A stretch of 64,000 nucleotides of DNA from an uncultured Planctomycetia bacterium (GTDB lineage: Bacteria; Omnitrophota; Gorgyraeia; 2-02-FULL-51-18): the NCBI GenBank assembly GCA_964642015.1, contig CAZXLF010000001.1, positions 43,946 to 107,945 of the forward strand, in the 5' to 3' direction. Every line of letters begins with the position of its first letter. The first letter of the stretch is position 1. The notes beneath the pieces were generated by a model that saw only the letters and a program-made list of their open reading frames with translations, was not told the origin of the DNA and did no database searches. Shown here piece by piece: positions 1 through 57,428 of this stretch. The position numbers and the translations under genes were made by a program.

Positions 1-751
1 CCGGCAGCCAGTTATGAAAAGGGAATTGAGCCGATTTTCCCATGACGCCTGTAAAAACAAGCAGACCCAAAATGGTCAAAAGTTTGGGTGAAAAAGCGTG
101 CTGCAATGAGCTTGCGGTCAAATCCACAAAATTCAACGAGCCAAAAAGGATAAAAATAAGGATTACACCCAGATAAAATCCCAGATCGCCAAGACGGTTG
201 ATCACAAATGCTTTTCGCGCGGCGGTCGCGGCACTTGGTTTCTCAAACCAGAATCCGATTAGTAAATACGAGGTGAGACCCACAAGCTCCCAGAAAAGGA
301 AGGTCTGCAGAAGATTATTTGACAGCACCAGGCCTGTCATCGAGAACGAAAAGAAACTTAAGAATCCAAAATAACGTGCCCGCGAATGATCTTCATTCAT
401 ATAATACACAGAGAATAACTGAACGAAGAATGAAATAACGGTGACGAGCCAGATCATCAGAAGATTCAACCGATCCATCAGAAAGCCGACTACTAAGGTA
501 TAATTTTGGATCGTGGTATGCGGCCAGAGCGGACCATCGGAGACGTGAAGCCAGGGATAAATAAACTGACTTGGCAGACCCTCACCATTCAAATGGCTTA
601 AGAAAAGTTTGGAACTGGCGGAAGCCGCTGTCAGAGCGCACAACACACCGATGATCGGGGCGATTTTTTTCAATGCTTTCGGTGTGATCTGAATCAATAG
701 AAACGCGGTTAAAGGCGCCAACTGAATTACCCAGAGAAGTTTTAAGTCCAT
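1..751 (-). CDS. nuoL: NADH-quinone oxidoreductase subunit L, N-terminal part (gene continues past window start)
   Basis: Reverse complement of 749-751 is ATG, directly after the nuoK stop. Translation MDLKLLWVIQ...FLFWELVGLTSYLLIGFW...AARKAFVINRLGDLGF carries hallmark NuoL/MrpA motifs. It is absent from the ORF track because there is no stop in the window. Confidence 0.8.
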   Translation of the reverse strand, partial: MDLKLLWVIQLAPLTAFLLIQITPKALKKIAPIIGVLCALTAASASSKLFLSHLNGEGLPSQFIYPWLHVSDGPLWPHTTIQNYTLVVGFLMDRLNLLMIWLVTVISFFVQLFSVYYMNEDHSRARYFGFLSFFSFSMTGLVLSNNLLQTFLFWELVGLTSYLLIGFWFEKPSAATAARKAFVINRLGDLGFYLGVILIFILFGSLNFVDLTASSLQHAFSPKLLTILGLLVFTGVMGKSAQFPFHNWLP

Positions 752-752
752 A

Positions 753-1067
753 TCACCCTTTCAGGTCTTTCGCTTCTTCAATGTTAATGGAATCTCTCCG
801 CCGATAGAGCAGCAGGATCAAACTTAGGCCGATGCATACTTCCGCGGCTGCCAATGCGATGATGAATACGACAAATACTTGACCAAGTGCTTTATTCGCA
901 AGGCAAAATTTGTTGAATGCCAGAAAATTGATACTTGCGGAGTTCAGGATAAGTTCCAGTGAAATCAGCATGGCCACAAGATTTCTTCTGAAAAGCAGGC
1001 CAAAAACTCCGATGGAAAACAGCCCCGCAGAAATGAATAAGTAGCTTTGGAGAGACTGGCTGATCAT
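753..1067 (-). CDS. nuoK: NADH-quinone oxidoreductase subunit K
   Basis: 104-aa three-helix membrane protein with NuoK-like sequence (LELILNSASINFLAF). It sits in the conserved J-K-L order and overlaps nuoJ by 4 nt. Confidence 0.85.
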   Translation of the reverse strand: MISQSLQSYLFISAGLFSIGVFGLLFRRNLVAMLISLELILNSASINFLAFNKFCLANKALGQVFVVFIIALAAAEVCIGLSLILLLYRRRDSINIEEAKDLKG

Positions 1068-1561
1068 GCAGAGTCCTTTGTGTTCGAGATCACCAACGCT
1101 CCGATAATAGCTACCAAAAGGATCAAAGAAACAACTTCGAAGGGTAATAAACTGTTACCCAAGAACATCCTACCGATCGCGCGGATCGAATAATCGCCTT
1201 CAATGGAAACTTGAGGCCACTGGGTTTTACGTATAACTTTCGTAAGTCCTACAAATAACGCGGTCCCGATCACCAAAGATCTGAGGATTTTTATCCCATT
1301 CCTTTTTTCGTGCTTCTGGAACATGGGCCGTGAAAGCATGATCGCGAAAATGATTGCGATAGAAATAGCGCCGATATAGATGATCACTTCCATGATCGCG
1401 AGGAACTCGCTGTTGAGATAGATGAAAAGACCGGCAACGCAGAAGAGGCAAAGGATAAGGGCTAGGGCGTTATAAAATACGTTCTTAAGCCATACTGCTA
1501 ATAAAGCGGCGATCAAAAGAATCGATGCTAAACCGACAAATACGATATCTGCGATGATCAT
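1064..1561 (-). CDS. nuoJ: NADH-quinone oxidoreductase subunit J
   Basis: 165-aa polytopic membrane protein located between nuoI and nuoK. Its 4-nt overlaps with both neighbours indicate translational coupling. Confidence 0.75.
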   Translation of the reverse strand: MIIADIVFVGLASILLIAALLAVWLKNVFYNALALILCLFCVAGLFIYLNSEFLAIMEVIIYIGAISIAIIFAIMLSRPMFQKHEKRNGIKILRSLVIGTALFVGLTKVIRKTQWPQVSIEGDYSIRAIGRMFLGNSLLPFEVVSLILLVAIIGALVISNTKDSA

Positions 1562-2106
1562 GCTTTAGGCGGCTCCGTCGCGCTTGTGGATGGTTTCGCT
1601 GCCGGAGCAGCGGCTGTTGCAGGAGCAGTTTGCCCTGGAGCTAAGACCGGAATCTTTGTCAGCGGTGTGCCGCGTTTCTCGAACGGCTCTAAAAGATCCA
1701 TGATCAATTCTTTTTGAGTCAGCGAAACCATGTCGTAATTCGGATCATCATGTTTCAGTGCGTCCGTAGGGCAGACGTCTATGCACAGACTGCATAGACT
1801 GCAAAGCATGTAGTTGACTTTGAAATCTGTCAACACTCTTTTGCCGTCAATAGCGCTTTTTTGAGCTTCCAGTGACATGCAGCGCGACGGGCAGGTTTTG
1901 ATGCAGGCGTTACAGGCGATACATTTGTGATCGCCCGTTTTTTCATCCACCACGAACGAGATCGGTCCTTTGAAGCGTTTCATCGGGATTCGTTCTTTGG
2001 GATAGATCACGGTGACCGGCTTCTTGAACGCGTAGCGGATCGTGATGCTCATTCCTACGATCAAGCTCCAGGCACCGTCGATAATGTCTTTGAAATATTT
2101 CATCAT
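1558..2106 (-). CDS. nuoI: NADH-quinone oxidoreductase subunit I (2x[4Fe-4S]) with Ala/Pro-rich C-terminal tail
   Basis: Two CxxCxxCxxxCP ferredoxin motifs (CIACNACIKTCP, CSLCSLCIDVCP). The likely start is at MMKYFKD (2106) rather than the ORF-track start at 2157, which overlaps nuoH. The C-terminal tail is PGQTAPATAAAPAAKPSTSATEPPKA. Confidence 0.85.
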   Translation of the reverse strand: MMKYFKDIIDGAWSLIVGMSITIRYAFKKPVTVIYPKERIPMKRFKGPISFVVDEKTGDHKCIACNACIKTCPSRCMSLEAQKSAIDGKRVLTDFKVNYMLCSLCSLCIDVCPTDALKHDDPNYDMVSLTQKELIMDLLEPFEKRGTPLTKIPVLAPGQTAPATAAAPAAKPSTSATEPPKA

Positions 2107-2107
2107 T

Positions 2108-3088
2108 TTATTTGAAGAAATGCTGGAATTGTAACATACACGCTGTAATGAAAACATTAAGAATCGCGAATGGGATCAATATTTTCCACGCGAATGCCAT
2201 TAATTGGTCGCTGCGCAGCCGCGGAAATGACCAGCGGATCCACATGATCACGAACACTAACGCATAAACCTTGATTAAAAACCATACGATACCGGGCAAA
2301 AATGGTCCACGCCAACCACCTAAGAAAAGCGTCGCTGAGATCGCCGATGAAACAAAGATGGCCGTATATTCTCCAAGAAAGAAAAGCGCAAAACGCATTC
2401 CGGAATACTCAGTATGGAATCCAGCGACGAGTTCTGACTCTGCTTCGGGAATATCAAAAGGTGCGCGGTTAGCTTCAGCGAGGCTTGCGCATAAAAATAT
2501 AAGGAACGCAAGCGGTTGCAGTATGATAAACCAGCTATCCTTTTGAGCGGCGACCAGTTCGGTTGTTTTGAGAGTGCCGGCGGTCATCACGACTCCCATC
2601 GTTGATAAAAGAAGGGGAATTTCATAAGAAATATTTTGAGCCACAGCGCGCATAGAGCCTAGTAGCGCATATTTATTATTCGATGACCAACCGGCTATGA
2701 ATATGCCGATGAAGCTGATATTGGTTAATGAAAACACGAAGAGAAAGCCCACGTTCAGATCGCGGATGATCCAGTGTTTGCTAAAAGGCATGATCAAGAA
2801 GGCCGATAAAACGGGCGCAAATACTAGCACCGGCGCCAGCCAATAACAAAATTTATCCGATTCTTTTGGAAATGACAGTTCTTTACTGATCAATTTGATC
2901 GCGTCTGCGGCGGTTTGAAGAAGACCGTGAATGCCGACATGCAACGGGCCACGGCGAAGCTGAATGCGCGCCGAGACTTTTCTTTCCATCCAAACAAGAA
3001 ACAGTGCATTTACTGAAACAAAAAGAACGACCAATGTTCCAAGAACGATAATTCTTATGATTTCTGTTAGGACGTTATTCATGTTCAA
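2108..3088 (-). CDS. nuoH: NADH-quinone oxidoreductase subunit H
   Basis: 326-aa polytopic membrane protein with NuoH/ND1 signature regions (EYTAIFVSS, GGWRGPF). It has a TTG start at 3088, or ATG at 3082. Confidence 0.9.
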   Translation of the reverse strand: MNMNNVLTEIIRIIVLGTLVVLFVSVNALFLVWMERKVSARIQLRRGPLHVGIHGLLQTAADAIKLISKELSFPKESDKFCYWLAPVLVFAPVLSAFLIMPFSKHWIIRDLNVGFLFVFSLTNISFIGIFIAGWSSNNKYALLGSMRAVAQNISYEIPLLLSTMGVVMTAGTLKTTELVAAQKDSWFIILQPLAFLIFLCASLAEANRAPFDIPEAESELVAGFHTEYSGMRFALFFLGEYTAIFVSSAISATLFLGGWRGPFLPGIVWFLIKVYALVFVIMWIRWSFPRLRSDQLMAFAWKILIPFAILNVFITACMLQFQHFFK

Positions 3089-3092
3089 TCTT

Positions 3093-3153
3093 CAGAAAAC
3101 AGACGTCAGAGAACAGATATTGCTTTAATCTGTACGCTGTCTTCTGTCTTCTG
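3093..3153. repeat. Imperfect hairpin of tandem heptamers, (CAGNNNN)3CAG - 13-nt loop - (CTGNNNN)3CTG, in the nuoCD-nuoH intergenic region
   Basis: The arm cagaaaacagacgtcagagaacag (3093-3116) matches the reverse complement of ctgtacgctgtcttctgtcttctg (3130-3153) at 18 of 24 positions. Confidence 0.5.
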
Positions 3154-3172
3154 AACACTTTCTTTAAATTAA

Positions 3173-4810
3173 TCAACGGTCGATCTCCGGCAACACGATA
3201 TCGATGCTTCCGAGCACCGCGACAACATCGGAAACCAGGCATCCGGGAAGCATGTCGATCATAGCGTTTAGATTTGAAAATGACGGTGTGCGAAGTTTCA
3301 TTCGGTAAGGATTTAAAGAGCCGTCGCTTACCAGGCAAATTCCGAAAGAACCGCGAGCTGATTCCACAGCAGAATAATACTCACCTTTAGGCACGTTTTT
3401 TGGCAGTTTTCCAAGCGTTACTTCGCCGGTTGGTATCTTATCGATGACCTGCGAAACGATTTTTAAGCTTTCTTCCATTTCCCGCGTGCGAATTTTGTAT
3501 CGTGAATAAACGTCTCCGCCTGTTTCAGTAGGGATGTTAAAATCAAGCTGAGGATAGATTGAATAGGGCTCGTCTCTTCTTAGATCGAACGGGATTCCGC
3601 TACCTCTCAAAGACGGGCCTGTCACACTGTATTTTAATGCGGTTTCTTTCGTGATGAGACCGAGTCCTTGGGTGCGCTTCCTGAAAATAATATTTTTTGT
3701 GACGAGCGCGTCATAATCGCGCAAGCGCTTCTTGAAATGGGGCATAAATTCTTTGATCGCCGGGATCATTTCAGCGGGAATATCTTTGTCCAGACCGCCG
3801 AAGCGGAAATAATCGTAGGTCAAACGCTCGCCGGTGGCCATTTCAAGGATGTCCAGTATTTTTTCCCGGTCATCGAAACAGTAAAAAAACGGCGTGAAAC
3901 CTCCGAGGTCCAGCAGAAAAGTACCCATCCACAAAAGATGTGATGCAATGCGATTAAGTTCTGTTGTGAGAACGCGAATGTATTCGACTCGCGGGGGAGG
4001 TTGGATACCCATAGCTTTTTCGATCAATACTGCATAGCCAAAGTTGTAACTCATCGCACCGACATAGTCGAGGCGTCCCATGTTAGGCCAGCAGGCCAGA
4101 TAATTCTGTATCTCCATCATTTTTTCATGATGACGATGGGAATAGCCGATGACCGGCTGGGCATCGATGACCCGTTCGCCGTCCAGATGAAGAAGTATTC
4201 TCAAGACCCCATGTGTGCTCGGGTGCTGAGGACCTAAATTTAGGTAATAATCTTTGCTGTTTTTCTTGTCTTGAATAACAACAGCATCCTTATATTGAGC
4301 GCTGAAACCTTCGGCGTCCTCTTCGATAAGCTTGAGCGATTGCGCGACATCAGCGCCTTTTGGCTCGCCTTTAAAGCTTTTGAGCAACGGAAATATGTCA
4401 GAGCTCTCTGGCAAAAGGAGGCGTTTGAGATTCGGATGATCGATGAATTTCACGCCAAACATGTCATAGATCTCGCGTTCTAGCCAATCAGCGGACCGAT
4501 AAATGGAGGAAATGCTGGGCGCAGTGTTTGATTCTTTTGGAACAAGGATCTTTACGCAGGATCTTTGCGTAGCTCCCCATTGATTAAAGTGGTAAACGAT
4601 CTCAAAACATTCAACAAAATCTACGGCTGTCAGAGATTCGAGAAAAAAGCCCTGGCTTAAATATTCTTTTGCAACATCACGGATCTTGGATTGGGGAACG
4701 ATCGCTTCGAATGAAATGCCGGAAGTCTTTAGATCTTTTTCATTAAATTCGTCAGGTTTTACAGTTTCCAGGAGCCAGCTTTTAATGTTTTTCTCTGTTA
4801 GAGTAGGCAT
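3173..4810 (-). CDS. nuoCD: Fused NADH-quinone oxidoreductase subunit C/D (30 kDa + 49 kDa)
   Basis: The N-terminal half is NuoC-like (DWLEREIYDMFGVKFIDHPNLKRLL). The C-terminal half is NuoD-like (LNLGPQHPSTHGVLRL...RLDYVGAMS...ATGERLTYDY). The start is at MPTLTEK (4810), not the upstream ORF-track Met. Confidence 0.85.
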   Translation of the reverse strand: MPTLTEKNIKSWLLETVKPDEFNEKDLKTSGISFEAIVPQSKIRDVAKEYLSQGFFLESLTAVDFVECFEIVYHFNQWGATQRSCVKILVPKESNTAPSISSIYRSADWLEREIYDMFGVKFIDHPNLKRLLLPESSDIFPLLKSFKGEPKGADVAQSLKLIEEDAEGFSAQYKDAVVIQDKKNSKDYYLNLGPQHPSTHGVLRILLHLDGERVIDAQPVIGYSHRHHEKMMEIQNYLACWPNMGRLDYVGAMSYNFGYAVLIEKAMGIQPPPRVEYIRVLTTELNRIASHLLWMGTFLLDLGGFTPFFYCFDDREKILDILEMATGERLTYDYFRFGGLDKDIPAEMIPAIKEFMPHFKKRLRDYDALVTKNIIFRKRTQGLGLITKETALKYSVTGPSLRGSGIPFDLRRDEPYSIYPQLDFNIPTETGGDVYSRYKIRTREMEESLKIVSQVIDKIPTGEVTLGKLPKNVPKGEYYSAVESARGSFGICLVSDGSLNPYRMKLRTPSFSNLNAMIDMLPGCLVSDVVAVLGSIDIVLPEIDR

Positions 4811-4817
4811 GGTTTGA

Positions 4818-5504
4818 TCAGACTTTCGCTTCTTGAGGAGCGGGAGTCGGCGGTGTGGGGGGTGCCGGTGGTTTTCTGAATTCTGCGCGCGAAATGGCAT
4901 TCTTGTATTCTGCGGGACGATTATCTTGTGAGTCTTTTACAGAAGCCGGTGACATGACACCTTGAGTTTTTCCTGAGAGAATTTGTTTTTGGAGTTCAAG
5001 GACCCCGGCGATCAATGCCTCGGGCCTTGGCGGACAGCCGGGAACATACACATTTACCGGAATGATCTTGTCGATACCTTCAAGAATGCCGTATTGGCCG
5101 GGATATTTGAAAGGGCCGCCGGCAGTCGCGCAGCCTCCAAGAGCAATGACATATTTAGGCGAAGGCATTTGATCATATAAAGTCTTGATACATGGGACCA
5201 TTTTTCTTGAAATAGTTCCGGCCACGATCATCAGATCTGCCTGTCGCGGCGACGGACGAAATACGCCGAACCCAAAACGGTCCATATCAAAACGTGCCGC
5301 GCCTCCGGCCATCAGTTCAATCGCACAGCAGGCCAAGCCGAATGTTAGCGGCCATAAAGAATTGGCTCTTGCTAAATTTAATACGTCTTCAACACGAAAA
5401 AGATTCACTAAACCTGGTGCGGGAGATTGAGTGTTTAGATAATTGGGGTCTTTGTTGATCTCAAGATTGGGATTTATTTCCATGCAAATAATCCTTTTTT
5501 CCAT
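4818..5504 (-). CDS. nuoB: NADH-quinone oxidoreductase subunit B (N2 [4Fe-4S]) with Pro-rich C-terminal extension
   Basis: [10 protein letters not shown]...[10 protein letters not shown]...PGCPPRP motifs. The tail is [17 protein letters not shown]. Confidence 0.85.
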
Positions 5505-5839
5505 GCATACAAAATTGCAAATGACAGTAACGCCAAAAAGATCCCAATCTCAAATAACGCTGCAAAACTCACTACCTCTTTATATATAACGAGGACCGGG
5601 AAAAGAAAAGCAGCTTCCACATCAAAGGCCAAGAAAATTAACGCGAAAAGATAATAGTTAATATCAAATTGAATCCACGCGCCGCCGATGGGCACTTCGC
5701 CGCTTTCATAAGGATCGCTGGCGCGGGAACCACGGCTTTTAGGGCTGATCAGGAGAGGAAGGAACGTGTTGACCACGACAAAACCAATGCCGATGATCAG
5801 GAATCCGAGAACATAAGAATAATCATGTAATAAAGACAT
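5474..5839 (-). CDS. nuoA: NADH-quinone oxidoreductase subunit A
   Basis: 121-aa protein with the NuoA motif [19 protein letters not shown]. It is the first gene of the minus-strand nuo operon. Confidence 0.85.
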
Positions 5840-6239
5840 TAAAGCAAAGCTCCGAACGTTTATAGCGCAACAGTATACAAAAAAGATAATGGCAAGTCAA
5901 CGCAGTTGGTTTTGATGGTTTTAGCGGAACGAAAAATTTTGGAATTTGTTGCAAAAGAGAATAAAAGCTAAGACAGGGCACGTAAAAAAGAGCATTTTCT
6001 ATCGCACAAGCCTTGACCACTATCTGGGTTCGTTCTTAGTGAATCGGAAAACTTGGATTTTTACAATAAAACACCTCAAATTTTTCAATTTAATATTTCA
6101 TAATATATTGAAATATAAAGAGTTATAGTTTATTTAAAGCGGTCCGAATATTTGTATTTTGACAGTATGGTCATGTATACTTTTGTTAAAATACGCTCAT
6201 GTTCATTTTGGTTCCACACTCTATAAATATTAATAGACT
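5840..6239. promoter_or_regulatory. AT-rich divergent intergenic region between the minus-strand nuo operon and the giant gene; promoters expected
   Basis: 400 bp of high AT content. It contains TTGACA (6159-6164), an extended -10-like TGtTAAAAT (6184-6192) and TATAAAT (6223-6229) only 11 nt upstream of the giant-gene ATG. No clear SD precedes that ATG. Confidence 0.3.
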
Positions 6240-6323
6240 ATGGCAAGAAAACACAAACAAATCATAAGATCCCTCTCTTTGCTGTTGGCGGTTTCTTTTT
6301 TTGCGTCGGAACTTGCTTATGCA
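6240..6323 (+). other. Sec-type signal peptide of the giant protein (MARKHKQIIRSLSLLLAVSFFASELAYA|AP)
   Basis: Basic n-region, hydrophobic h-region and an A-Y-A signal-peptidase I site. Confidence 0.6.
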
Positions 6324-9300
6324 GCACCTATTGATGCGCAGGCAGTGAGAGAAGTTCCGATACAAATCATCGCTCAAGATCCCACGCGTTTTGAAGCACC
6401 TGTTTCTTTTACAACTCTCAAGGAAATTCATAAAGGCAGCGAAAATACTTTGATCATTCATATTCAGGATGCGCATGCGAATTATAGCGGTCAGGAAAAT
6501 TTAGCTAACGCACTGGATGAGCTCATGACAAAGTACAAGATCAGTTTAGTTCTTGTCGAAGGCGGGACCAAAGACGATACGTTGACTCCCATTAAAAAAG
6601 TCGCATCACCCTTGGTTTGGAAAAAAGTTGCGAAGAAATTTCTTGGCGAGGGAAAGATCACAGGCGAAGAGTACCTTAATCTGATCTCTGATCATCCGAT
6701 GAAGATCATGGGGATCGAGGATAAAGCGCTTTATATGTCTAGCTTGAACGCTTATAAAGACCTGGCCGATAAAAGGGAAACAACCTTGGGCTATCTTAAG
6801 AAGATCCAAGCCGCAGTGGATAAAGTTAAGAAAAAAGTTTATCCAGTGGAACTTTTGGATTATGAGAAAGAAAAAAGTAAAACAAATACTGTGCTTAACG
6901 GAACACCGGCGTTCGAGAAAAATTTTGAGATTAATTTCAGGGGATTAATGAAACTGATTGCCGATATTCAAAATGCGGACAGCCATGGAGAGAATTTCCT
7001 GGCACCTTTTCCCGATCTTCAAAAATTAAAAGCCATTCAAGAAAAAGAGAGATCGATTGATTTTGACGCGGCCAATCTGGAGCAGGCGGCTTTGATAGAA
7101 GAGATCCAAAAACGAGGGGGAATTGAAGAGTTCAAAGATTATCTGAAGAAGCTTGGTCAGATGAAGGATCAAAGAGCTTGTCAATTTGCCTACTTTCAAA
7201 ATACTTTAAATATAGCCAAAAAAAAGGGGATCTCGATAGAAAAGTATCCCGATCTGATCATTTATGGCGAATACCTAAAGAATTTTCAAGAATTGGATTT
7301 AGACCTTGTGTTAGATCAGTTGGAGCGTGCCGAGGACCAGGTTTACGTAAGGCTTTTTCAGCGCAATGCCAAATTTCAGAACGACGCTCGCCTAGTCCGG
7401 TCAATAGACCGTTATATAGGTCTTCTTGATACTGCATATCGGATCAAGATGTCGACCAAGGAATTTAACCTCTTCAAAGTTAATGAACCGGATTTTACCA
7501 CTCCCAGTTATTTGGCTTTTCTAAATCGTAAGCTAGCCGAGTATGGATATTTTCAAGACCTGATCCCGTATCAAACAAAAGAGACAGGCAATCCGCTTGA
7601 AGAAGGAAAAAAAGCGTTGGAGGCGTTTTATGATTCCGTGAATCAAAGAGATATGGCATTTATCAAAAATACCGAAAGAATTTTGAAAAATGAAAACCAA
7701 CAAGTAGCGGTGCTTATTTCGGGAGGTTATCATACGCCGCATCTTAAGAAACTTTTCAAAGAAAAAAACTATTCCTACGCGGTCCTCACCCCTATCATTA
7801 CTTCTGAAACCGATCAGTCTAAATATGAAAAAATATTGCTCGAACCGATCAAAAAGGAATCTAAGGTTGTTGAGAATGTCCAAGGCGAGCGCAAGTCACA
7901 GGATAAATCGTTGAGCGATCTGGAGGAAGATTTGATCAAGCTTAAGAAGCAGTCTGATCAAGTCAGGCAAACGGAATTAGTGGAATCCGGTAGCCGACTG
8001 GCTGAGGTGTTGAAAGACATTGAGGCTAACGGAGCAGGTGAAGAAGCGGTTGCTGCGGCAAGTTTAAATCTTTTAAAAAATAATCCACGATCGGCAAGTG
8101 AGCCAGTTCCGGCTATGGCGGATACAAAACTCGCAAGCGCACCGCAAAATATTCCTTCCGGCGCACGTCTCTCATCTCAAAACGAAAATACCGAACGGCC
8201 AGACTCACGAGAGGTGAGAGGGACATTGCTTTTGGTTGAGAAAAGTTTTCTGTTGCCGAACTGGCTCGGTCTTTTTCTGACCAAAATACTGTTTCAATTC
8301 TATGCCAAGCGTAATTTTGGATTGATCAGGTGGAATACCAATACGGAGATTATCTGTCTGCCTTGGTCTGACCAGAAAATACGCGATACGCATCCAGAAT
8401 ATCATCGGAAGTTGTGGCAAGAATGGAAAGATGCGCACGGCCGCTATGACGATTGGAATGTGACGGTCAATCTGGTGAGCCGTTTCATGCCGACGCCTGC
8501 GGCAGTAGCGGTCTCGATGGAAGAAAAAAATATCAATGTTTTCATCAAAATGTCGCTATGGGATCGTCGAGATCTTTTTGGGCATATATTTGACAAAGCA
8601 GACGAATTTATCCAGCAAAGCGAATCTTCTCATGCCCAGGGTTCGCGGCTTGCGTTGAATCGTTTCAAGGCGCCTGTCTATATTGACGAGAAGGACTTTG
8701 ATAATGCGAACAGGTCATATCTTGATCGTCACCGAGATCAGTGGCAATGGATCCGAGAAAATATAATGCCGTACCTGATTGAACGGGCCCTAAAGAGGGT
8801 CCATGGATCTGAAAAACCAAGACTTGATGTGCTTGTGTTAGGCGCAAGCACCGGAGAAGAATTAGCTAGGACATTTTATGAAGTCACTACGGATCTTTCC
8901 GCCAGAGGTTATGATCCTAATCAGTGGATCTTGATGATTCATGGTTTTGATTCAGACCGGAATGTAGTTTCCGAAGGACAGAAAAGATTAAGAGGCCAGT
9001 CACCTTTCATTGGTGCGCGGCCCTTTCAAACAGAAGCGCAACTGGAGGATTATGCGGGGCGTGTCGTTTCACTGCTGAATCAATATCGTGAGAAAGTAGC
9101 AGAGAGTTTATTTTTGCACCAAAGAAATGTTCTGGATATCGCGCCGCTGAAGAATAGCTTCCCGAACGCGGACATTATTCTTGTGAATCATCTGATGAGG
9201 ATCTTGAAAAATAATCAGCGATTGGCGCTTATTCAGAATTTGAGTTTTGAATGGAAAGATGCGCTGCTTGCGATAGGTGATATGCCTAAATTCGAAAATG

Positions 9301-48392: not shown

Positions 48393-48421
48393 TTTACAAA
48401 CCAAACCGAGTGACCTATAAT
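48393..48421 (+). promoter_or_regulatory. Sigma70-like promoter for plus-strand nuo operon: TTTACA -17 bp- TATAAT
   Basis: TTTACA at 48393-48398 and TATAAT at 48416-48421, separated by a 17-bp spacer. It lies 50 nt upstream of the nuoA ATG. Confidence 0.5.
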
Positions 48422-48430
48422 GCCTCTTTT

Positions 48431-48439
48431 TGCTATAAT
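48431..48439 (+). promoter_or_regulatory. Second, extended -10 element TGcTATAAT upstream of nuoA
   Basis: TG at 48431-48432 and TATAAT at 48434-48439. The SD AGGGGAC lies 5-11 nt before the ATG at 48472. Confidence 0.4.
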
Positions 48440-48471
48440 AGTTCTTGTAATAGATTATTTTCAGGGGACTT

Positions 48472-49832: not shown

Positions 49833-50863
49833 TGAGCACCAGGGCACCAGAGCAACAGAGCGCCAGAAGGTTTGAAGGCCAATCATCGAATTTTTGTCGT
49901 TTTTTTCGTTCAGGAGCTTTGACTTTTCTGATTTTTTGGTGTTCTGGTTTTCTAATGCTCTGGTGCTCTAATTCTGCGTTTGCAGCCCGGGCGGATAAGA
50001 AAAATTTTCTGCAGGAAGCGGACGAGGCCTATCGCGAAGGCAGCGTCAATCAGTCCGTAGGTCTTTATCAAAAAGCGCTCGACGCTAATCCGCAAAATGC
50101 CGCAGCGGCCCAAAGTCTCGGTGTTACTTATGCCGAGCAAGGCGAGTGGGACAATGCGATCGACAATTTACAAAAGTCGCTGGCGATCAATCCGAAGAAT
50201 CCCGAGGTTTATATCGATCTGTCGCTGGCTTATGCTGAAAAGAAGGATTTTCAGAAATCTGTCAGTTATGCGCAAAAAGCCGTGGATATCGCGCCGAAAA
50301 GAGCGGATTCTTATTTGACATTGGGTTTAGCTTACGAAGGATTGGGCAATAATAAAAGTGCGCTAGAAACCTATCAGCAGGGGATCGAGGCCAATCCTAA
50401 GAGTTCCGACCTTTATCTGACGATGGGCAATCTTTACGGTAAACAAGGTCTCTTTGACAGCGCGATCAAGGCGTATAAATCCGCGATCGCGAAAAATCCG
50501 AAAGACACATTCGCTTATTCCAACCTGGCTTATGCCTATGAAGCCAAAAAAGATCTAAAGAGCGCGATCGATGCGCTTACGCAAGGTGTTCAGGCGAATT
50601 CCGATGATGCGGTGCTTTGGTATGATCTCGGCGACGCTTACGGAAAAGCTGGAAATACGGCAAAAGCGATAGAAAATTACAAGAAAAGTTTCGACATGAA
50701 TCCGCAATCTTACAAAACTTGTGTCAGTTTGGCGATGGCCTATGAAAAACAGAGGAATCTGGAAAAGGCGGCCGAATATTATGTCAAAGCAATGGGCTTG
50801 ACGAATGACCCGAAATTAAAAGAAGCGATCTTAAGACAGATAAGCCGTACGAATAATAAGTAA
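49832..50863 (+). CDS. TPR-repeat protein inserted between nuoC and nuoD (N-terminal hydrophobic segment; true start uncertain)
   Basis: Nine or more 34-residue TPR units (e.g. AYAEQGEWDNAIDNLQKSLAINPKNPEVY). taATG overlaps at both ends (49830-49834 and 50861-50865) indicate translational coupling. The 5' 140 nt overlap an inverted-repeat element, so the start may be an internal TTG at 49919 or ATG at 49955. Confidence 0.7.
   Translation: MSTRAPEQQSARRFEGQSSNFCRFFRSGALTFLIFWCSGFLMLWCSNSAFAARADKKNFLQEADEAYREGSVNQSVGLYQKALDANPQNAAAAQSLGVTYAEQGEWDNAIDNLQKSLAINPKNPEVYIDLSLAYAEKKDFQKSVSYAQKAVDIAPKRADSYLTLGLAYEGLGNNKSALETYQQGIEANPKSSDLYLTMGNLYGKQGLFDSAIKAYKSAIAKNPKDTFAYSNLAYAYEAKKDLKSAIDALTQGVQANSDDAVLWYDLGDAYGKAGNTAKAIENYKKSFDMNPQSYKTCVSLAMAYEKQRNLEKAAEYYVKAMGLTNDPKLKEAILRQISRTNNK
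49835..49978. repeat. Inverted repeat built from tandem 8-mers: (RGCRMCAG)x4 at 49835-49866 versus complementary (YTCTGGTG-like)x4 at 49938-49978
   Basis: The forward arm is agcaccag ggcaccag agcaacag agcgccag. The arm gctctggtgctc (49958-49969) is the exact reverse complement of gagcaccagagc. Confidence 0.5.
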
Positions 50864-52215
50864 TGGGAAAACCTTTAGCTCCGCATTTAAAAGCGACCGA
50901 GTCGCGGTCGATGTTATTGAATATCGGCCCGTCGCACCCGGCGATGCATGGCATTGTACGCATCATCACTGAATTGGACGGTGAGACCGTCGTCGATGCC
51001 GATGTAGAAATAGGTTATCTTCATCGCGCATTCGAGAAGATGTGCGAACAAGGCCCTTACAACAACGCAATCCCTTATACTGACCGCCTGAATTATGTGT
51101 CTCCTCTGATCAATAATATCGGCTACTGCATGGCTGTCGAGAAACTCCTTGGGATCGAGACGACGGAGCGTTGCAAATATATCCGTGTGATCATGAGCGA
51201 AGTATCGCGCATCACGGATCATTTGACTTGCATCGGCGCATCTGCAATGGAACTTGGCGCGTTCACGGTTTTCCTTTATATGATCAAAGCCAGAGAATTT
51301 CTTTACGAACTGATCGATGATGTGACCGGCGCGCGTTTGACCATCTCCTATGCGCGGGTGGGAGGTCTTAAATCAGACCTGCCGGATGGCTTTGAGGAGA
51401 AGTTATTAAAAGCCATTGGCGAGACACGCGGTATATTAAAGGAAGTTGAAGGACTTTTGAATAAAAACCGCATCTTTGTTGACCGTATGAAGGATGTTGG
51501 CGTGATATCCAAGGAGGATGCGCTGGCTTACTCGATCACCGGGCCTTTTTTGCGTTCAACAGGTGTTGATTATGACGTCCGGAAATCGCAGCCGTATCTT
51601 GTGTATGATCAATTGGATTTTGATATCCCGGTTGGTGAGCACGGTGATAATCTCGACCGTTATTATGTTCGTATGGAAGAAATGGTCCAGAGCATGCGGA
51701 TCATTGAGCAGGCCATTCAGAAAATGCCGAAAGGCGCTATTTTGGTGGACGAAAAGGGGCGGACGATCCCCGCGGCTTTGATGGTCGACGAAGCCAAAAT
51801 GGGCCAGACGGAAGGATTTAAAAGTTTAAAGGTTGATCTTGATCCGACATTGGAAGGTTCGACAAAAAGTTACCACGATAACGTTTACGCGAAAGAAAAG
51901 AATGTTTCGCTTCCGGCAAAAGAAGACGCTTACGGCAATATCGAGGGGTTGATGAATCATTTCAAGCTCGTGATGTATGGGCACGGCATTAAACCGCCGA
52001 AAGGCGAAGCGTATTTTCCGGTGGAAGGTGCTAATGGTGAGCTTGGATTTTATATTGTGAGCGACGGCACTGAGAGACCATACCGCGTGCGTGTACGTCC
52101 GCCTTGTTTTCCGATCGTCGCGGCTTTGCCGGTGATGCTGAAGGGAGACATGGTTGCGGATATTGTCCCGACATTCGGGTCAGTCAATATGATCGGCGGG
52201 GAATTAGACCGGTGA
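50863..52215 (+). CDS. nuoD: NADH-quinone oxidoreductase subunit D
   Basis: LNIGPSHPAMHGIVRI ... RLNYVSPL ... VTGARLTISY. Confidence 0.9.
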   Translation: MGKPLAPHLKATESRSMLLNIGPSHPAMHGIVRIITELDGETVVDADVEIGYLHRAFEKMCEQGPYNNAIPYTDRLNYVSPLINNIGYCMAVEKLLGIETTERCKYIRVIMSEVSRITDHLTCIGASAMELGAFTVFLYMIKAREFLYELIDDVTGARLTISYARVGGLKSDLPDGFEEKLLKAIGETRGILKEVEGLLNKNRIFVDRMKDVGVISKEDALAYSITGPFLRSTGVDYDVRKSQPYLVYDQLDFDIPVGEHGDNLDRYYVRMEEMVQSMRIIEQAIQKMPKGAILVDEKGRTIPAALMVDEAKMGQTEGFKSLKVDLDPTLEGSTKSYHDNVYAKEKNVSLPAKEDAYGNIEGLMNHFKLVMYGHGIKPPKGEAYFPVEGANGELGFYIVSDGTERPYRVRVRPPCFPIVAALPVMLKGDMVADIVPTFGSVNMIGGELDR

Positions 52216-52259: not shown

Positions 52260-52274
52260 TAAAACAAAATCTTT

Positions 52275-52748
52275 ATGGATAAAGACATTTTTAAGCAATT
52301 GGACAAGGAAGCTCAGTTAATTGTTGCCAAGTATGACAAAAAACACGCAGCTGTTTTGACTTTGCTTCATCTGGCGCAGGATAGAGTCGGCTATGTGACG
52401 CCCGAAATCGAGGCATGGGTATCACAGTGGACCGAAGTTCCGGTCGTGCATGTGCGGGAAGTCGTGACCTTTTATTCGATGTATCACAAGAAGCCTGTCG
52501 GCAGGCACCATATTCGTTTTTGCACGACGACCAGCTGCATGCTAATGGGCGGTGAAAAGGTTCTGGAGCATTTGAAAAAGAAGATCGGCGTTGAGAATGG
52601 GCAGACGACCGCTGACGGAAAAATATCTCTGGAAGAGGTCGAATGTCTCTGCGCCTGCGAAGCGGCACCCATGATGCAAGTGAATGATAAATATTATGGC
52701 GATTTGAGTGAGAAAAAAATAGATGAGCTTATTGATAAACTTAAGTAG
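52275..52748 (+). CDS. nuoE: NADH-quinone oxidoreductase subunit E (Trx-like [2Fe-2S])
   Basis: Cys motifs CTTTSC ... CLCACEAAP. Confidence 0.85.
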   Translation: MDKDIFKQLDKEAQLIVAKYDKKHAAVLTLLHLAQDRVGYVTPEIEAWVSQWTEVPVVHVREVVTFYSMYHKKPVGRHHIRFCTTTSCMLMGGEKVLEHLKKKIGVENGQTTADGKISLEEVECLCACEAAPMMQVNDKYYGDLSEKKIDELIDKLK

Positions 52749-52815
52749 TGTGCCAGCACACCAACGCACCAGGCACCAGTTAGTTTTTTCCGGTGCTCTA
52801 GTGCTCAGGTGCTCA
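52749..52815. repeat. nuoE-nuoF junction hairpin: (GCACCAG-type)x3-4 arm, 12-nt loop, (GGTGCTCN)x3 arm
   Basis: tgtgccagcacaccaacgcaccaggcaccag / ttagttttttcc / ggtgctctagtgctcaggtgctca. The 3' arm overlaps the nuoF GTG start region. Confidence 0.5.
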
Positions 52816-54119
52816 TAGCGAAACTTATGAAAGAACCCATTTTATCCCGCAATTTCAATATTCCCGATTCGTGGAAGATAGGTATTGCCGAAAACAGAGG
52901 CGCTTACCAAACGGCCAAAAAAGTCGTCACGACAATGAGGCCGGATGAAGTGACCGCTGCGGTTTTGGCGTCTAATCTTCGCGGGCTTGGCGGAGCCGGA
53001 TTTCCTACGGGAAAGAAGTGGCAGTTCTTACCCAAGGACAATAAGAAGCCCGTTTATCTTGTGATCAACGCCGATGAAGGCGAGCCAGGGACTTTTAAAG
53101 ACAGGTATATTCTCGAACGCGACCCGCATCAACTGATCGAGGGGATCATTATCAGCGCTTTTGCGATCGGTTCGCATAAATCCTATATTTATATCCGCGG
53201 GGAATACGTCGAGCCCTGTCGGCGCTTGCAGGCGGCCGTCGATGAGGCTTATGCGAAAAATTATCTGGGAAAAAACATTTTTGGAAACTCTTATGCTTTG
53301 GATCTTGTCGTTCACCGTGGTGCGGGCGCGTATATCTGCGGAGAGGAGACCGCGCTTTTGGAATCTCTCGAAGGTAAACGAGGACTCCCGCGTCTTAAAC
53401 CGCCATTCCCGGCGATTGTCGGCCTTTTTGGATGTCCGACGATCATCAATAACGTCGAGACGATGGCTTGTGTCCCTCATATTTTAAAGAATGGTGCTGA
53501 GTGGTTCGCAAAGCTGGGCAGCGCCGGAAACGGCGGCACGCATTTATTTAGCATCTCGGGTCATGTGAAGAAACCCGGTGTTTATGAACTCCCGATGGGC
53601 ACGCCGCTTCGCGAGATGATCTATACGCATGCCGGAGGGATTCGCGACGGCCATACACTTAAGGCGGTGATTCCCGGAGGTATTTCGGCGAAGATCCTGA
53701 CCGCAAATGAGATCGACGTAAAAATGGATTACGATTCACTTCGAGCGATAGGTACCATGCTTGGTTCCGCCGGCGTGATCGTGATGGATGAGACAACTTC
53801 GATGGTCAAGGCGCTTCTTGTTGCTTGTAAATTTTTCGCGCACGAATCCTGCGGGCAATGCTCTCCTTGCCGCGAAGGCACCGGCTGGGCTTATAAGATC
53901 GTTCAGCGTGTTTATAACGGCGAAGGCAGTTTAAAAGACCTTGAAACACTTTTGACGATCGCACGGAATATGGAAGGACGCACGATCTGCGTTTTTGCGG
54001 ATGCTGCCGCATGGCCGATACAGAGCTACATCACGAAATTCAGAAGCGAATTCGAAGAATACATAAAAAATAAAAAGGGAGCACCAGATCACCAGGCACT
54101 CGAACACCATACGATATAA
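52809..54119 (+). CDS. nuoF: NADH-quinone oxidoreductase subunit F (FMN, NADH-binding, [4Fe-4S])
   Basis: GGAGFPTGKKW and CGQCSPCREGTGW. There is a GTG start at 52809, with an alternative ATG at 52827. Confidence 0.9.
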   Translation: MLIAKLMKEPILSRNFNIPDSWKIGIAENRGAYQTAKKVVTTMRPDEVTAAVLASNLRGLGGAGFPTGKKWQFLPKDNKKPVYLVINADEGEPGTFKDRYILERDPHQLIEGIIISAFAIGSHKSYIYIRGEYVEPCRRLQAAVDEAYAKNYLGKNIFGNSYALDLVVHRGAGAYICGEETALLESLEGKRGLPRLKPPFPAIVGLFGCPTIINNVETMACVPHILKNGAEWFAKLGSAGNGGTHLFSISGHVKKPGVYELPMGTPLREMIYTHAGGIRDGHTLKAVIPGGISAKILTANEIDVKMDYDSLRAIGTMLGSAGVIVMDETTSMVKALLVACKFFAHESCGQCSPCREGTGWAYKIVQRVYNGEGSLKDLETLLTIARNMEGRTICVFADAAAWPIQSYITKFRSEFEEYIKNKKGAPDHQALEHHTI

Positions 54120-54147
54120 TATTTGGTGTTCTGGCGCGCTAGTGCCA
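54081..54147. repeat. nuoF-nuoG junction hairpin of the same GCACCAG/CTGGTGC family
   Basis: The 5' arm gcaccagatcaccaggcactcgaacacca lies inside the last 13 nuoF codons. The loop atacgatataatattt follows, then the 3' arm ggtgttctggcgcgctagtgcca. Confidence 0.5.
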
Positions 54148-54162
54148 AGCGCTCATTAGAAG

Positions 54163-55788
54163 ATGGTTAATATTTCGATAGATGGAAAATCGTACACCGT
54201 TAAAGACGGGATCACGATCATCGAGGCGATTGATCAGATAAAATCCGATCTTCCGCGTTATTGCTACCATCCCGGCCTGTCGATTGCGGGAAATTGTCGT
54301 ATCTGCCAGGTGGAAGTGGAAAAAATGCCGCGCACTGTGATTGCGTGCAATACGCGCGTCGCCGAAGGTATGGCAATCCATACGAATTCCCCTAAAGCGA
54401 AAGAATCCCAACAGGTTGTTTTGGAATTCCTTCTCGCGAACCACCCGCTTGATTGTCCCGTCTGCGATCAGGCTGGTGAGTGTAAGCTTCAGGATTACTA
54501 CATGGACTACGGTCTTTACGATCCAAAATTCAATGAAGAGAAGGTCAAGAAAACAAAAAAAGCTTTTTCTATCGGCCCGACAGTGATGCTGGATCAGGAA
54601 CGCTGTATTTTATGTTCGCGCTGCGTGCGTTTCGGAGATGAAATAACGAAGACGCATGATTTCGGCATTTTTAACAGAGGTGATCACGCCGAGATCAATA
54701 TTTATCCTGGGGCGGAATTGAACAATAAATATTCCGGCAATGTCGTGGATATTTGCCCGGTCGGCGCACTCACCGACAAAGATTTCCGTTTCAAGATGCG
54801 TGTTTGGTATCTGGGTTCGACGGAGTCGATCTGTCCGGGCTGTTCACGCGGCTGCAATATCAATATCGAATATGAAAAATCAAGGCCTTACCATTTGAAG
54901 AACGATCGCGTGATGCGTCTTAAGCCTCGTGAGAATCAAGAGGTGAATAAATGGTGGATCTGCGATGAAGGTCGTTATGCTTATAAATCCATTGATCAGA
55001 ACCGGTTAAAAAAAATATCCGGAGCTTCCTGGACTGAGACGCTTTTAAAGATCGCTTCTCTGATAAAAAATGACAAGGCACCGAATTCCTGGGGACTTCT
55101 GGCATCCACTCAGAATACGAACGAAGAACTTTATTTGGTCAAAAAAATCTTCAAGGATGCTTTAAAATGGAAAAATATAGCGTTCAAAACCTCTCTTTCA
55201 GACGGCTATGAAGATAATTTTTTGATCAAGAAAGATAAAAATCCCAATTCGACCGGTGCCTCCAAGATCCTGGGACTCGGCAAAGAATCCGAAGATATTG
55301 CTTTGGTGATCGAGAAAGCGAAACGAGGTGAGCTGGAAGGGCTTTTTATTTTTCATCATGATATCGCAAAGCTTTTTGGCAGCGAAACTCTAACAACGAT
55401 ACGCCAGAAAGTTAAGACGATCATTTACGAAGGATCTAACGAAAATCCGACGGCTACCCTGGCTGATCTTGTGTTGCCCAGCGCCTCTTATGCTGAAAAA
55501 GAGGGTACGTTTACGAATTTTGAGGGAAGGATCCAGCGGATACGAAAGGCGTTTGAGCCGCTTGGTCAATCAAGGCCCACTTGGCAAGTTCTCCTTGAGC
55601 TTGGGATCCATTTAGGGCTTACATTTACGCATGAAAAGCCAGAAAGTATTTTCATGGCTCTTGCCAAAGAAAATGAGGCTTTCCAAGATCTTAATTATAG
55701 GAAGATAGCAGACAAAGGCATTCTCTGGCATTCCGCAAATTCGCATAAGAGCGTGGCGGATGCTTTAGCTATGAGTTCATCCGGATAA
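54163..55788 (+). CDS. nuoG: NADH-quinone oxidoreductase subunit G (short 541-aa form)
   Basis: N-terminal 2Fe-2S CYHPGLSIAGNCRICQVEV, then HPLDCPVCDQAGECKLQ and the 4Fe-4S cluster CILCSRCVRF. Confidence 0.85.
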   Translation: MVNISIDGKSYTVKDGITIIEAIDQIKSDLPRYCYHPGLSIAGNCRICQVEVEKMPRTVIACNTRVAEGMAIHTNSPKAKESQQVVLEFLLANHPLDCPVCDQAGECKLQDYYMDYGLYDPKFNEEKVKKTKKAFSIGPTVMLDQERCILCSRCVRFGDEITKTHDFGIFNRGDHAEINIYPGAELNNKYSGNVVDICPVGALTDKDFRFKMRVWYLGSTESICPGCSRGCNINIEYEKSRPYHLKNDRVMRLKPRENQEVNKWWICDEGRYAYKSIDQNRLKKISGASWTETLLKIASLIKNDKAPNSWGLLASTQNTNEELYLVKKIFKDALKWKNIAFKTSLSDGYEDNFLIKKDKNPNSTGASKILGLGKESEDIALVIEKAKRGELEGLFIFHHDIAKLFGSETLTTIRQKVKTIIYEGSNENPTATLADLVLPSASYAEKEGTFTNFEGRIQRIRKAFEPLGQSRPTWQVLLELGIHLGLTFTHEKPESIFMALAKENEAFQDLNYRKIADKGILWHSANSHKSVADALAMSSSG

Positions 55789-55791
55789 ATT

Positions 55792-56895
55792 ATGCTCGCG
55801 ATCATCATTATCAAAACAATACTCGCCGCTGTTTTTTTGGGCATGATCCTTAATTTGGCAGGCCTCTTGACTTGGGTCGAGCGCAAGCAAAGTGCTGTGA
55901 TGCAGGACCGCATCGGTGCCAACCGTGCGTGGATCGAATTCAAGCCCAAATGGCTTGTTCCGCTTAATTGGCTTTTGAGGCCGCTGAATGTGCTGGGCCT
56001 TTTTCATTCTTTAGCCGACGCGGTGAAAATGTTCTTAAAAGAGGATTTCATTCCCGATGGCGCGGATAAATTTTTACATACTCTGGCGCCGGCGATCTCG
56101 GTGATCTTCGCGCTAATGGCTTTTGCGTCGATCCCGTTTGGCGACACTCTTCACATTGCCGGCCGTTCGATCGAATTGCAGGTAGCCAATGTGAATGCGG
56201 GTATGTTGTTCGTCTTTGCGATGATGTCGCTTGGGGTTTACGGCGTGATCCTGGGCGGTTTTTCTTCAAATAACAAATACGCTTATCTGGGCGGGATGCG
56301 CGCCGCGTCACAGATGCTTTCCTATGAAATTACGATGGGTATTTCGATCATGGGTATCGTGCTTTGTTATGGGACATTGAATCTACAGGAGATCGTACGG
56401 CATCAATCGCATCTTTGGGGTTTCGTGGTGCAGCCTTTCGCGTTCCTGCTTTTTATGACCGCGGCTTTGGCGGAGACCAAACGCGTGCCGTTCGATCTGC
56501 CGGAAGGCGAATCGGAAATCATCGGTTACTTTGTGGAGTATAGCGGCATGAAGTTCGGCATGTTCTTTCTCACAGACCTCGTAGAGACGGTTTTGGTCGC
56601 TTGCCTTATGACGACATTTTTCTTTGGTGGTTGGCAAGTACCTTTTCTTTCGCCGGACGGATTTCATTTTCCCTGGGGCTTTTCCGCGCTTCCTCACGGA
56701 GTCGTGATCGCTTTGGGAGTGATCTCGTTCATGGTGAAGGTCGCGTTCTTTAATTGGCTTTTTATGGCGATCCGTTGGACGTTGCCGCGTTTCCGTTACG
56801 ACCAGCTAATGCATTTAGGCTGGAAAATATTATTTCCGGCATCGCTTTTGAATGTGCTTGTGACAAGCGTCATTGTTGTAATGAGGGTGCACTGA
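55792..56895 (+). CDS. nuoH: NADH-quinone oxidoreductase subunit H (second paralog)
   Basis: FFLTDLVETVLV ... GGWQVPFL. Polytopic membrane protein. Confidence 0.85.
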   Translation: MLAIIIIKTILAAVFLGMILNLAGLLTWVERKQSAVMQDRIGANRAWIEFKPKWLVPLNWLLRPLNVLGLFHSLADAVKMFLKEDFIPDGADKFLHTLAPAISVIFALMAFASIPFGDTLHIAGRSIELQVANVNAGMLFVFAMMSLGVYGVILGGFSSNNKYAYLGGMRAASQMLSYEITMGISIMGIVLCYGTLNLQEIVRHQSHLWGFVVQPFAFLLFMTAALAETKRVPFDLPEGESEIIGYFVEYSGMKFGMFFLTDLVETVLVACLMTTFFFGGWQVPFLSPDGFHFPWGFSALPHGVVIALGVISFMVKVAFFNWLFMAIRWTLPRFRYDQLMHLGWKILFPASLLNVLVTSVIVVMRVH

Positions 56896-57428
56896 TGGCG
56901 ACCAAGGTCTTAAAACGGCAGGAGCTCAGTTTTTGGGACAGGACCTATGTCCCATCGGTATTCTTGGGCCTTTGGATTACATCCAGACATTTTTTCAGGA
57001 ATCTTTTGATCCACACGCTTCACAGCATAGGTCTATTCAAAAACGTAAGAGCTTCCGTGACATTCCAATATCCGGAAGAGCAGCGGCCGCTCGCAAAACG
57101 CGCACGCACGCGCCATCGTTTGACGCAGCGTGAAGACGGCACACCGCGCTGTGTGGCTTGCATGATGTGCGAGACGGTGTGTCCGGCACGTTGTATCAAT
57201 ATTGTTGCAAAAGAACATCCGGATCCGAACATCGAAAAAATGCCGGCTTCGTTCGATCTGGATCTCGGTATGTGCGTTTACTGCGGTTTTTGCGTGGAAG
57301 TCTGTCCGGAAGACGCGATCCGCATGGATACGCATATTTTGGATACAGCCGCTTACAGCCGTTCGGAAATGAAGCTCGATATGCAGGAGCTTCTGAATCC
57401 TCGTTCTTCGCTTCTTTACAAGAAATAG
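56895..57428 (+). CDS. nuoI: NADH-quinone oxidoreductase subunit I (second paralog)
   Basis: CVACMMCETVCP and CVYCGFCVEVCP. The ATG at 56895 (tgATG overlap with the nuoH stop) is preferred over the ORF-track start at 56754, which overlaps nuoH. Confidence 0.85.
   Translation: MATKVLKRQELSFWDRTYVPSVFLGLWITSRHFFRNLLIHTLHSIGLFKNVRASVTFQYPEEQRPLAKRARTRHRLTQREDGTPRCVACMMCETVCPARCINIVAKEHPDPNIEKMPASFDLDLGMCVYCGFCVEVCPEDAIRMDTHILDTAAYSRSEMKLDMQELLNPRSSLLYKK

Follow-up and report, generated by a model that had tools for sequence, protein, structure and literature searches.

The 64,000-nucleotide stretch of contig CAZXLF010000001.1 examined here (the window) comes from a bacterium near the Omnitrophota lineage 2-02-FULL-51-18 and carries two sets of nuo genes for respiratory complex I, one on the minus strand (set 1) and one on the plus strand (set 2). 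We conclude that the organism very probably has two separate and complete complex I enzymes, one of 11 and one of 14 subunits, whose genes lie at three loci. The minus-strand operon encodes the whole 11-subunit enzyme, the plus-strand operon encodes NuoA to NuoI of the 14-subunit enzyme, and nuoJ to nuoN of the set 2 lineage appear to lie at a locus of their own. Neither operon is a remnant, and thus no exotic sharing of subunits is needed to account for them.

Two complex I gene sets around a giant gene

Genes in the window were identified from a six-frame list of open reading frames (ORFs) and NCBIfam scans with curated cut-offs, and Pfam was used for the other genes. These scans bear out a preliminary description of the window, made from its letters alone, in which the minus-strand set was read as A, B, fused CD, H, I, J, K, and L without E, F, or G. 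The first gene of the operon, nuoA1 (positions 5474 to 5839; 121 amino acids [aa]; NuoA models, 7e-25), is followed on the same strand by nuoB1 (4818 to 5483; 221 aa), which scores 222 bits with NF005012 against a cut-off of 116, and by nuoCD1 (3173 to 4810; 545 aa), a fused gene matched by both NuoC and NuoD models. Further along are nuoH1 (2108 to 3082; 324 aa; NF004741 NuoH, 373 bits against a cut-off of 305), nuoI1 (1558 to 2103; 181 aa; TIGR01971, 2e-29), nuoJ1 (1064 to 1561; 165 aa; NuoJ models, ~5e-30), and nuoK1 (753 to 1067; 104 aa; NF004320, 96 bits against a cut-off of 57), the last with both membrane Glu motifs. The set reaches the left edge of the window within nuoL1, of which the N-terminal 250 codons are present (1 to 751; NF005141 NuoL, 9.7e-71).

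An exact look-up of NuoK1 retrieved Logan contig L001 (run SRR12313479), which is 100% identical to window positions 1 to 11067 and extends operon 1 past the left edge; the gene call in this contig also supplied the start codon adopted for nuoI1. On L001, nuoL1 (632 aa) is followed by nuoM1 (485 aa), nuoN1 (476 aa), and then unrelated genes, and NuoM1 and NuoN1 exceed the TIGR01972 and TIGR01770 cut-offs. Because the identical overlap adds nuoL, nuoM, and nuoN, the minus-strand operon is a complete one of the 11-subunit, EFG-less type, with the order nuoA-B-CD-H-I-J-K-L-M-N and with nuoE, nuoF, and nuoG absent. The 11-subunit layout proposed earlier therefore stands, and the designation of the operon as partial does not. 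An operon of the same ten genes, with the same downstream neighbors, was found in two relatives (L100 and L102; NuoCD identities of 87% and 71%), and the fusion of nuoC to nuoD is kept in 120 Omnitrophota homologues. The extra tails noted on NuoB and NuoI of this set are also real and kept in close relatives: NuoB1 carries ~45 additional C-terminal aa, which are likewise present in L100 and L012, while the NuoI1 tail is Pro/Ala-rich, spans ~35 aa, and recurs in L100. These conserved tails may be regarded as candidate docking elements.

The plus-strand operon (set 2) opens with nuoA2 (48472 to 48849; 125 aa; NuoA/Ndh3 models, 1.8e-33), nuoB2 (48816 to 49340; 174 aa; NF005012, 212 bits against a cut-off of 116), and an unfused nuoC2 (49341 to 49832; 163 aa; TIGR01961, 142 bits against 122). 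An ORF for a TPR-repeat protein comes next (49832 to 50863; 343 aa; Pfam TPR_1/2/8 and related), and its product has a signal-peptide-like N-terminus. The operon continues with nuoD2 (50863 to 52215; 450 aa; TIGR01962, 485 bits against 459), nuoE2 (52275 to 52748; 157 aa; TIGR01958, 178 bits against 142), nuoF2 (52809 to 54119; 436 aa; TIGR01959, 619 bits against 559), a short form of nuoG2 (54163 to 55788; 541 aa; TIGR01973, 449 bits against 470), and nuoH2 (55792 to 56895; 367 aa; NuoH models, 1.8e-92). Its last nuo gene is nuoI2 (56895 to 57428; 177 aa; TIGR01971, 113.4 bits against 113.05), the start codon of which was taken from the gene call in contig L095 together with a TGATG overlap with nuoH2. 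E-values for the set range from 1e-25 to 1e-186, with B, C, D, E, F, and I exceeding their curated cut-offs. The description of this set as A to I without J to N, followed by unrelated genes, was thus sound as far as it went; the resulting order is nuoA-B-C-(TPR gene)-D-E-F-G-H-I, and both the TPR ORF and an insertion in NuoD2 had been overlooked.

The TPR ORF is joined to nuoC2 and nuoD2 by a TAATG stop/start overlap at either end. Relatives of the operon were collected by scanning species-representative genomes with NuoD2, which yielded 80 loci, nearly all from Omnitrophota metagenome-assembled genomes (MAGs), at 66 to 85% identity. Orthologues of the TPR gene occupy the same slot in 23 close relatives and, by gene order among the 80 loci, are confined to the closest clade, which also has the genes found downstream of the operon in the window. 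Because most orthologues have Sec-signal-like N-termini, the TPR protein is predicted to be periplasmic. A literature search found no precedent for a TPR gene within a nuo operon. The insertion in NuoD2 comprises ~47 aa (residues ~300 to 346, mapped against mouse NDUFS2), and its motifs AAxMVDxAKMG and DPTLxG occur in all Omnitrophota and Acidobacteriota-labeled relatives; at the same site, NuoCD1 is without the canonical helix segment. New here, though minor, are the in-operon gene for a secreted-type TPR protein, the insertion conserved in NuoD2, and the conserved position of the two operons on either side of a giant gene.

That giant gene, which the two nuo sets flank as first described, is an ORF of 14,047 aa on the plus strand (6240 to 48383; from the ORF list) and is part of the context rather than of complex I. 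A consensus scan placed a sigma-70-like promoter candidate for operon 1 at 5872 to 5900 on the minus strand (TTGACT-17-TATACT, 10/12), 33 nt upstream of the nuoA1 start. Two overlapping sigma-70-like candidates for operon 2 (48393 to 48439, plus strand) fall in the 88-bp gap between the giant gene and nuoA2; one reads TTTACA-17-TATAAT (11/12) and the other GTGACC-18-TATAAT with an upstream TG. All of these are consensus matches only. With a promoter-like match directly upstream of each operon, independent transcription of the two is plausible.

Cofactor motifs and predicted electron donors

The preliminary description called the paralogs highly diverged, with NuoA copies about one-third identical by eye, and blastp comparisons agree. 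Identity between the sets is 25 to 44%: 38.6% over 83 aa for A, 44% for B, 42% for C, 41 to 44% for D, 37% for H, and 25% for I. Both NuoB proteins nevertheless keep the ligand motifs of cluster N2 (including PGCPPRP in NuoB1), and both NuoI proteins keep two CxxCxxCxxxCP motifs (N6a/N6b). The quinone-site His and Tyr motifs read GPSHPAMHG and RLNYV in NuoD2 and GPQHPSTHG and RLDYV in NuoCD1; we take these two residues to be the counterparts of H38 and Y87 in Thermus thermophilus Nqo4. An FMN/NADH site and the subunits NuoE, NuoF, and NuoG were found only in set 2. In a motif scan of NuoF2, NuoE2, NuoG2, NuoI2, and NuoB2, the FMN/NADH site and the ligands of N1a, N3, N1b, N4, N5, N6a/b, and N2 were all located, among them GLGGAGFPTG, GAGAYICGEE, and CGQCSPCREG in NuoF2, the 2Fe-2S Cys motifs in NuoE2, and N1b, N5, N4, and N7-like Cys motifs in NuoG2, the 541-aa length of which is shared by relatives. 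Since only set 2 has NuoE/F/G and the FMN/NADH motifs, the NADH-oxidizing enzyme is assigned to set 2 together with its nuoJ-N genes, and set 1 to a separate enzyme without an NADH-oxidizing (N) module.

Other enzyme classes built on related subunits were considered and rejected. For the group 4 [NiFe] hydrogenases (Ech/Mbh/Hyc), neither NuoD has a C-terminal DPCxxC-type motif, and matches to hydrogenase chains were far weaker than those to complex I. NuoD2 matched solved 49-kDa/Nqo4/NuoCD chains at 1e-80 to 1e-103, and NuoCD1 matched complex I structures in the PDB at ~1e-98, compared with 1e-44 for membrane-bound hydrogenase (MBH) and 7e-46 for formate hydrogenlyase (FHL). The D part of NuoCD1 is of the short type, and its terminal ...EIDR sequence is without NiFe-ligand cysteines. 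An Fpo identity was rejected for both sets, as the FpoD model gave 336 to 374 bits against a cut-off of 600, and no FpoF- or FpoO-like gene adjoins either operon. Cyanobacterial NDH-1 was rejected in the same way (NdhH, 323 to 360 bits against 583; NdhI, 55 to 65 bits against 302), and no NdhS-type genes were found adjoining the operons.

From these features, enzyme 1 would be assembled from the NuoA, B, CD, H, I, J, K, L, M, and N products of a single operon, with no NADH-oxidizing module. Its Fe-S path from N6a/N6b to N2 is complete, its quinone site is of the complex I type, and three of its subunits are antiporter-like. Most likely it would accept electrons from a donor of low potential, for example reduced ferredoxin, and pass them to membrane quinone with proton pumping. 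By analogy with other enzymes that lack NuoEFG, reduced ferredoxin would be the most plausible donor. Enzyme 2 would be a 14-subunit NADH:quinone oxidoreductase with its genes split between nuoA-I in the window and nuoJ-N at a separate locus. Electrons would run from NADH to flavin mononucleotide (FMN) in NuoF, through the clusters of NuoE, NuoF, and NuoG to those of NuoI, and from N2 in NuoB to quinone at the NuoD/B/H site, with proton pumping by NuoL, NuoM, and NuoN of the matching lineage. Both activities are predictions from sequence.

The single NuoEFG of operon 2 might instead dock on the 11-subunit core as well, in which case both enzymes would oxidize NADH and would differ only in their quinone (Q) and proton-pumping (P) modules. 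We consider this quite unlikely, although none of the points against it is decisive: the docking subunits NuoI, NuoC/D, and NuoB are just 25 to 44% identical between the sets, the short-type NuoD of NuoCD1 lacks a segment that NuoD2 has in enlarged form, NuoB1 and NuoI1 have conserved tails of their own, and 11-subunit enzymes are common in genomes without nuoEFG (PMC11238625).

The nuoJ-N locus, operon layout, and neighboring genes

A nuoJ-N block directly beyond the right edge of the window would have made operon 2 a simple continuous operon. Contig L095 is 100% identical to window positions 52785 to 64000 and reaches ~6 kb past that edge, and no nuo genes lie in those ~6 kb; a suf operon is found there instead. 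Among the 80 loci, operon 2 stops at nuoI in all those of Omnitrophota that extend far enough to reveal its end, and no Omnitrophota relative has nuoJ-N after nuoI on the same strand. In a more distant clade, nuoN, nuoM, and nuoL are convergent and just downstream of nuoI, and extension of one such case showed that these genes belong to a nuoJ-K-L-M-N operon that stands alone and do not form the end of an 11-subunit one. The close-clade MAG GCA_001804125.1 has nuoA-G on contig 9 (L003) and nuoL-M-N on contig 56, and an ENA contig that encodes a NuoN identical to the one in this MAG holds a full nuoJ-K-L-M-N set between unrelated genes. Further stand-alone nuoJKLMN loci were found in other relatives; in one of them (L098), genes for an extracytoplasmic function (ECF) sigma factor and a FecR-like anti-sigma factor (7318 to 9152) lie directly upstream. 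By gene order, nuoA-I and nuoJ-N are separate transcription units in Omnitrophota.

All 120 listed matches to set-2-type NuoN are only 34 to 42% identical to NuoN1. Among these homologues, P0038 is encoded on contigs of runs SRR12313479 and SRR12313480, which also hold the window's own contigs, while P0040, P0036, P0075, and P0028 are on contigs from other runs. A 21.6-kb contig of the first run (L093, SRR12313479_30564) carries the C-terminal 375 aa of nuoL2 at the contig end, followed by nuoM2 (504 aa), nuoN2 (482 aa), mgtE, mscS, an H+-pyrophosphatase gene, and others, and its Nuo proteins match the NuoL, NuoM, and NuoN models. Its G+C fraction is 0.459 against 0.460 for the window, and its tetranucleotide correlation with the window (0.970) is the highest of all fetched loci, with other Omnitrophota at 0.918 or less. 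NuoL2, NuoM2, and NuoN2 are 42%, 41%, and 37% identical to their set 1 counterparts, a distance that equals that of the A-I paralogs. Across Omnitrophota, the J-N identity to L093 scales with the A-I identity to the window, as expected for partner modules. L093 and L094 (SRR12313480_34409), from two independent assemblies, break at the same point of nuoL2, at a conserved AMEGPTPVSALIHAATMV motif, where paralogous nuoL/M/N sequence probably broke the assembly graph; in the window organism, nuoJ2 and nuoK2 would precede nuoL2. The earlier suggestion that the EFG-containing set obtains its membrane arm from elsewhere is thus right in that nuoJ-N lie at another locus, which also removes the label of partial from this operon, and wrong in that no subunits of the other complex are needed.

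A different arrangement was seen in two MAG contigs labeled Acidobacteriota/Terriglobia (L065 and L070), where the genes lie on one strand in the permuted order nuoJ-K-L-L'-M-N-A-B-C-D-E-F-G-H-I, with two NuoL-like genes. Their A-I proteins resemble those of the window to the degree that distant Omnitrophota do (NuoB, 87%; NuoD, 70%), and their J-N proteins are just 28 to 42% identical. The contiguity of these genes was considered as a tie of J2-N2 to A2-I2 and rejected, as the J-N proteins are too distant from both sets. The mismatch suggests module-level chimerism or transfer. Even so, we think it quite unlikely that nuoA-I and nuoJ-N are separately inherited, exchangeable cassettes. If such cassettes also mixed within the cell, two peripheral and two membrane arms would give at most four combinations, and the TPR protein, if periplasmic, might be an assembly or specificity factor.

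It is very unlikely that J1-N1 constitute the only J-N set of the organism, with A2-I2 assembling on NuoJ1-N1 and two peripheral arms competing for them. The lack of J-N after nuoI2, in the window and in the next ~6 kb, and the failure to find nuoJ2 and nuoK2 of this organism fit such an arrangement, but the two runs that hold the window's contigs also yielded a nuoL-M-N contig of the set 2 lineage, which matches the window best in composition, a dedicated JKLMN operon was present in all relatives examined, and the would-be partners are distant (A and H, 37 to 39%; J1 and J2, ~30%; K1 and K2, 48%).

Several observations nevertheless count against two complete enzymes. The assignment of L093 to the same genome as the window is inferred from shared samples and composition, not from physical linkage, and nuoJ2 and nuoK2 of the window organism were not recovered, as the best match to a close-clade NuoJ2 query came from another sample; what doubt we retain comes from the linkage of this third locus and from the failure to observe J2 and K2. 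NuoG2 is short and scores just below its curated cut-off. In addition, the electron donor of 11-subunit enzymes is described as unresolved (PMC11238625), and complex I was scored as fragmentary in 176 complete Omnitrophota genomes, in a survey that used strict KEGG orthology (KO) thresholds and covered other habitats (bioRxiv 10.64898/2026.06.07.730766).

The layout of the window, with operon 1 leftward and the giant gene and nuoA2-I2 rightward, recurs in two independent relatives. In GCA_022072175.1, a gene for 10,120 aa lies beside nuoA1, divergent from an 11-subunit operon, and nuoA2-I2 are ~30 kb away on the same 1.59-Mb contig, so that, by its length, the giant gene ends just before nuoA2. 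One ENA contig and one JGI contig have a gene for 9,204 aa in the position of the giant gene. Giant-like C-termini are found directly upstream of nuoA2 in L014 and L026, nuoA1 and nuoA2 diverge directly in L012 and L027, where nothing separates the two, and other relatives have fragments only, or nothing, at this position. A chimeric join of separate loci or organisms around the giant gene, a possibility raised at the outset and left some room by short-read contigs that do not span the gene (L001 covers 1 to 11067 and L095 covers 52785 to 64000), can practically be dismissed, as the same order recurs in independent assemblies and both G+C and tetranucleotide composition are uniform along the window. 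The recurring layout also shows that the two operons are old neighbors, between which a large gene of variable kind has been inserted.

Within the giant ORF, the motif G[AT]RL[ASTV] (mostly GARLA) occurs 35 times, where composition predicts ~0.19 occurrences; its spacing is 123 to 1088 aa, and it divides heterogeneous enzyme-like segments. In one close relative (L029, 18017 to 19405), a homologue of the giant N-terminus (46% over 488 aa) lies downstream of nuoA2-I2, not upstream.

On the 3' side of nuoI2, the window holds small ORFs and genes for EVE, Rieske, methyltransferase, epimerase, DUF420, IscA, Rrf2, and SufB proteins. Three small ORFs directly follow nuoI2 on the plus strand (57509 to 58589), with synteny kept in the close clade; two are without a Pfam match, and the third encodes a Cys-rich protein of 94 aa with a weak match to DUF1636. 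No terminator-like site was found between nuoI2 and these ORFs. Genes for the DUF420 protein, the IscA-like protein, and the Rrf2 regulator (61882 to 64000, plus strand) are accompanied by a sufB-C-D-S, nifU, nfu, and peroxiredoxin cluster that runs into L095, so that a suf cluster lies downstream of the Fe-S-rich operon 2. The DUF420 gene here and an SCO1/SenC gene near the nuoJ2-N2 locus hint at a heme-copper oxidase.

Comparison with known systems

At least one Omnitrophota lineage thus appears to invest in two full proton-pumping complex I enzymes, one that oxidizes NADH and one that draws on a different donor, probably ferredoxin, with a genome that in a close relative is ~1.5 Mb (1.53 Mb in the closest named one). 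Omnitrophota are often assumed to live purely by fermentation or as parasites, but two such enzymes would point instead to a respiratory, redox-flexible lifestyle. Complex I of this phylum has been scored by a single Pfam family or by strict KOs (PMC10066038; bioRxiv 10.64898/2026.06.07.730766), and surveys of either kind can register such genomes as fragmentary or simply as having complex I. The placement of the operons around a giant gene and the in-operon TPR gene offer leads for work on complex I assembly or on giant genes.

Though real, the finding is of an ordinary kind: isozyme pairs and split operons are already known. Two complex I isozymes occur in ~3% of bacterial genomes, and one genome has a single nuoEFG with the rest of the genes present twice; none of the isozyme cases in that survey is from Omnitrophota or the Planctomycetes-Verrucomicrobia-Chlamydiae (PVC) group (PMC4453560). 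In the literature searched, we found no description of two isozymes or of an A-I/J-N split for Omnitrophota. Unlike the isozyme genomes surveyed, the operons described here are conserved divergent neighbors, often with a giant gene between them. Of the two complex I versions in Sulfurospirillum multivorans, one is encoded as two opposed operons and probably uses ferredoxin or flavodoxin (PMC11238625). In that organism and other epsilonproteobacteria, the split is nuoABCDEF/nuoGHIJKLMN and NuoE and NuoF are atypical, whereas here the split is A-I/J-N and NuoE and NuoF are canonical.

Set 2 shares NuoA-I and the canonical motifs with the classical 14-subunit complex I (Escherichia coli Nuo, T. 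thermophilus Nqo, and Paracoccus NDH-1), but its genes are split into nuoA-I and nuoJ-N instead of forming one operon, and it adds the TPR gene, the ~47-aa NuoD insertion, and the short NuoG of 541 aa. The 11-subunit, EFG-less enzymes are widespread (PMC11238625), and set 1 is like them in gene content, gene order, and a complex-I-type NuoD; it differs in the fusion of NuoC to NuoD, in the conserved C-terminal tails of NuoB and NuoI, and in its coexistence with a 14-subunit enzyme in a probably small genome. A functional analogy for set 1 is offered by cyanobacterial and chloroplast NDH-1 and archaeal Fpo, in which an 11-subunit core without NuoEFG is fed by ferredoxin or F420H2, although both sets fall far below the Ndh- and Fpo-specific NCBIfam cut-offs.

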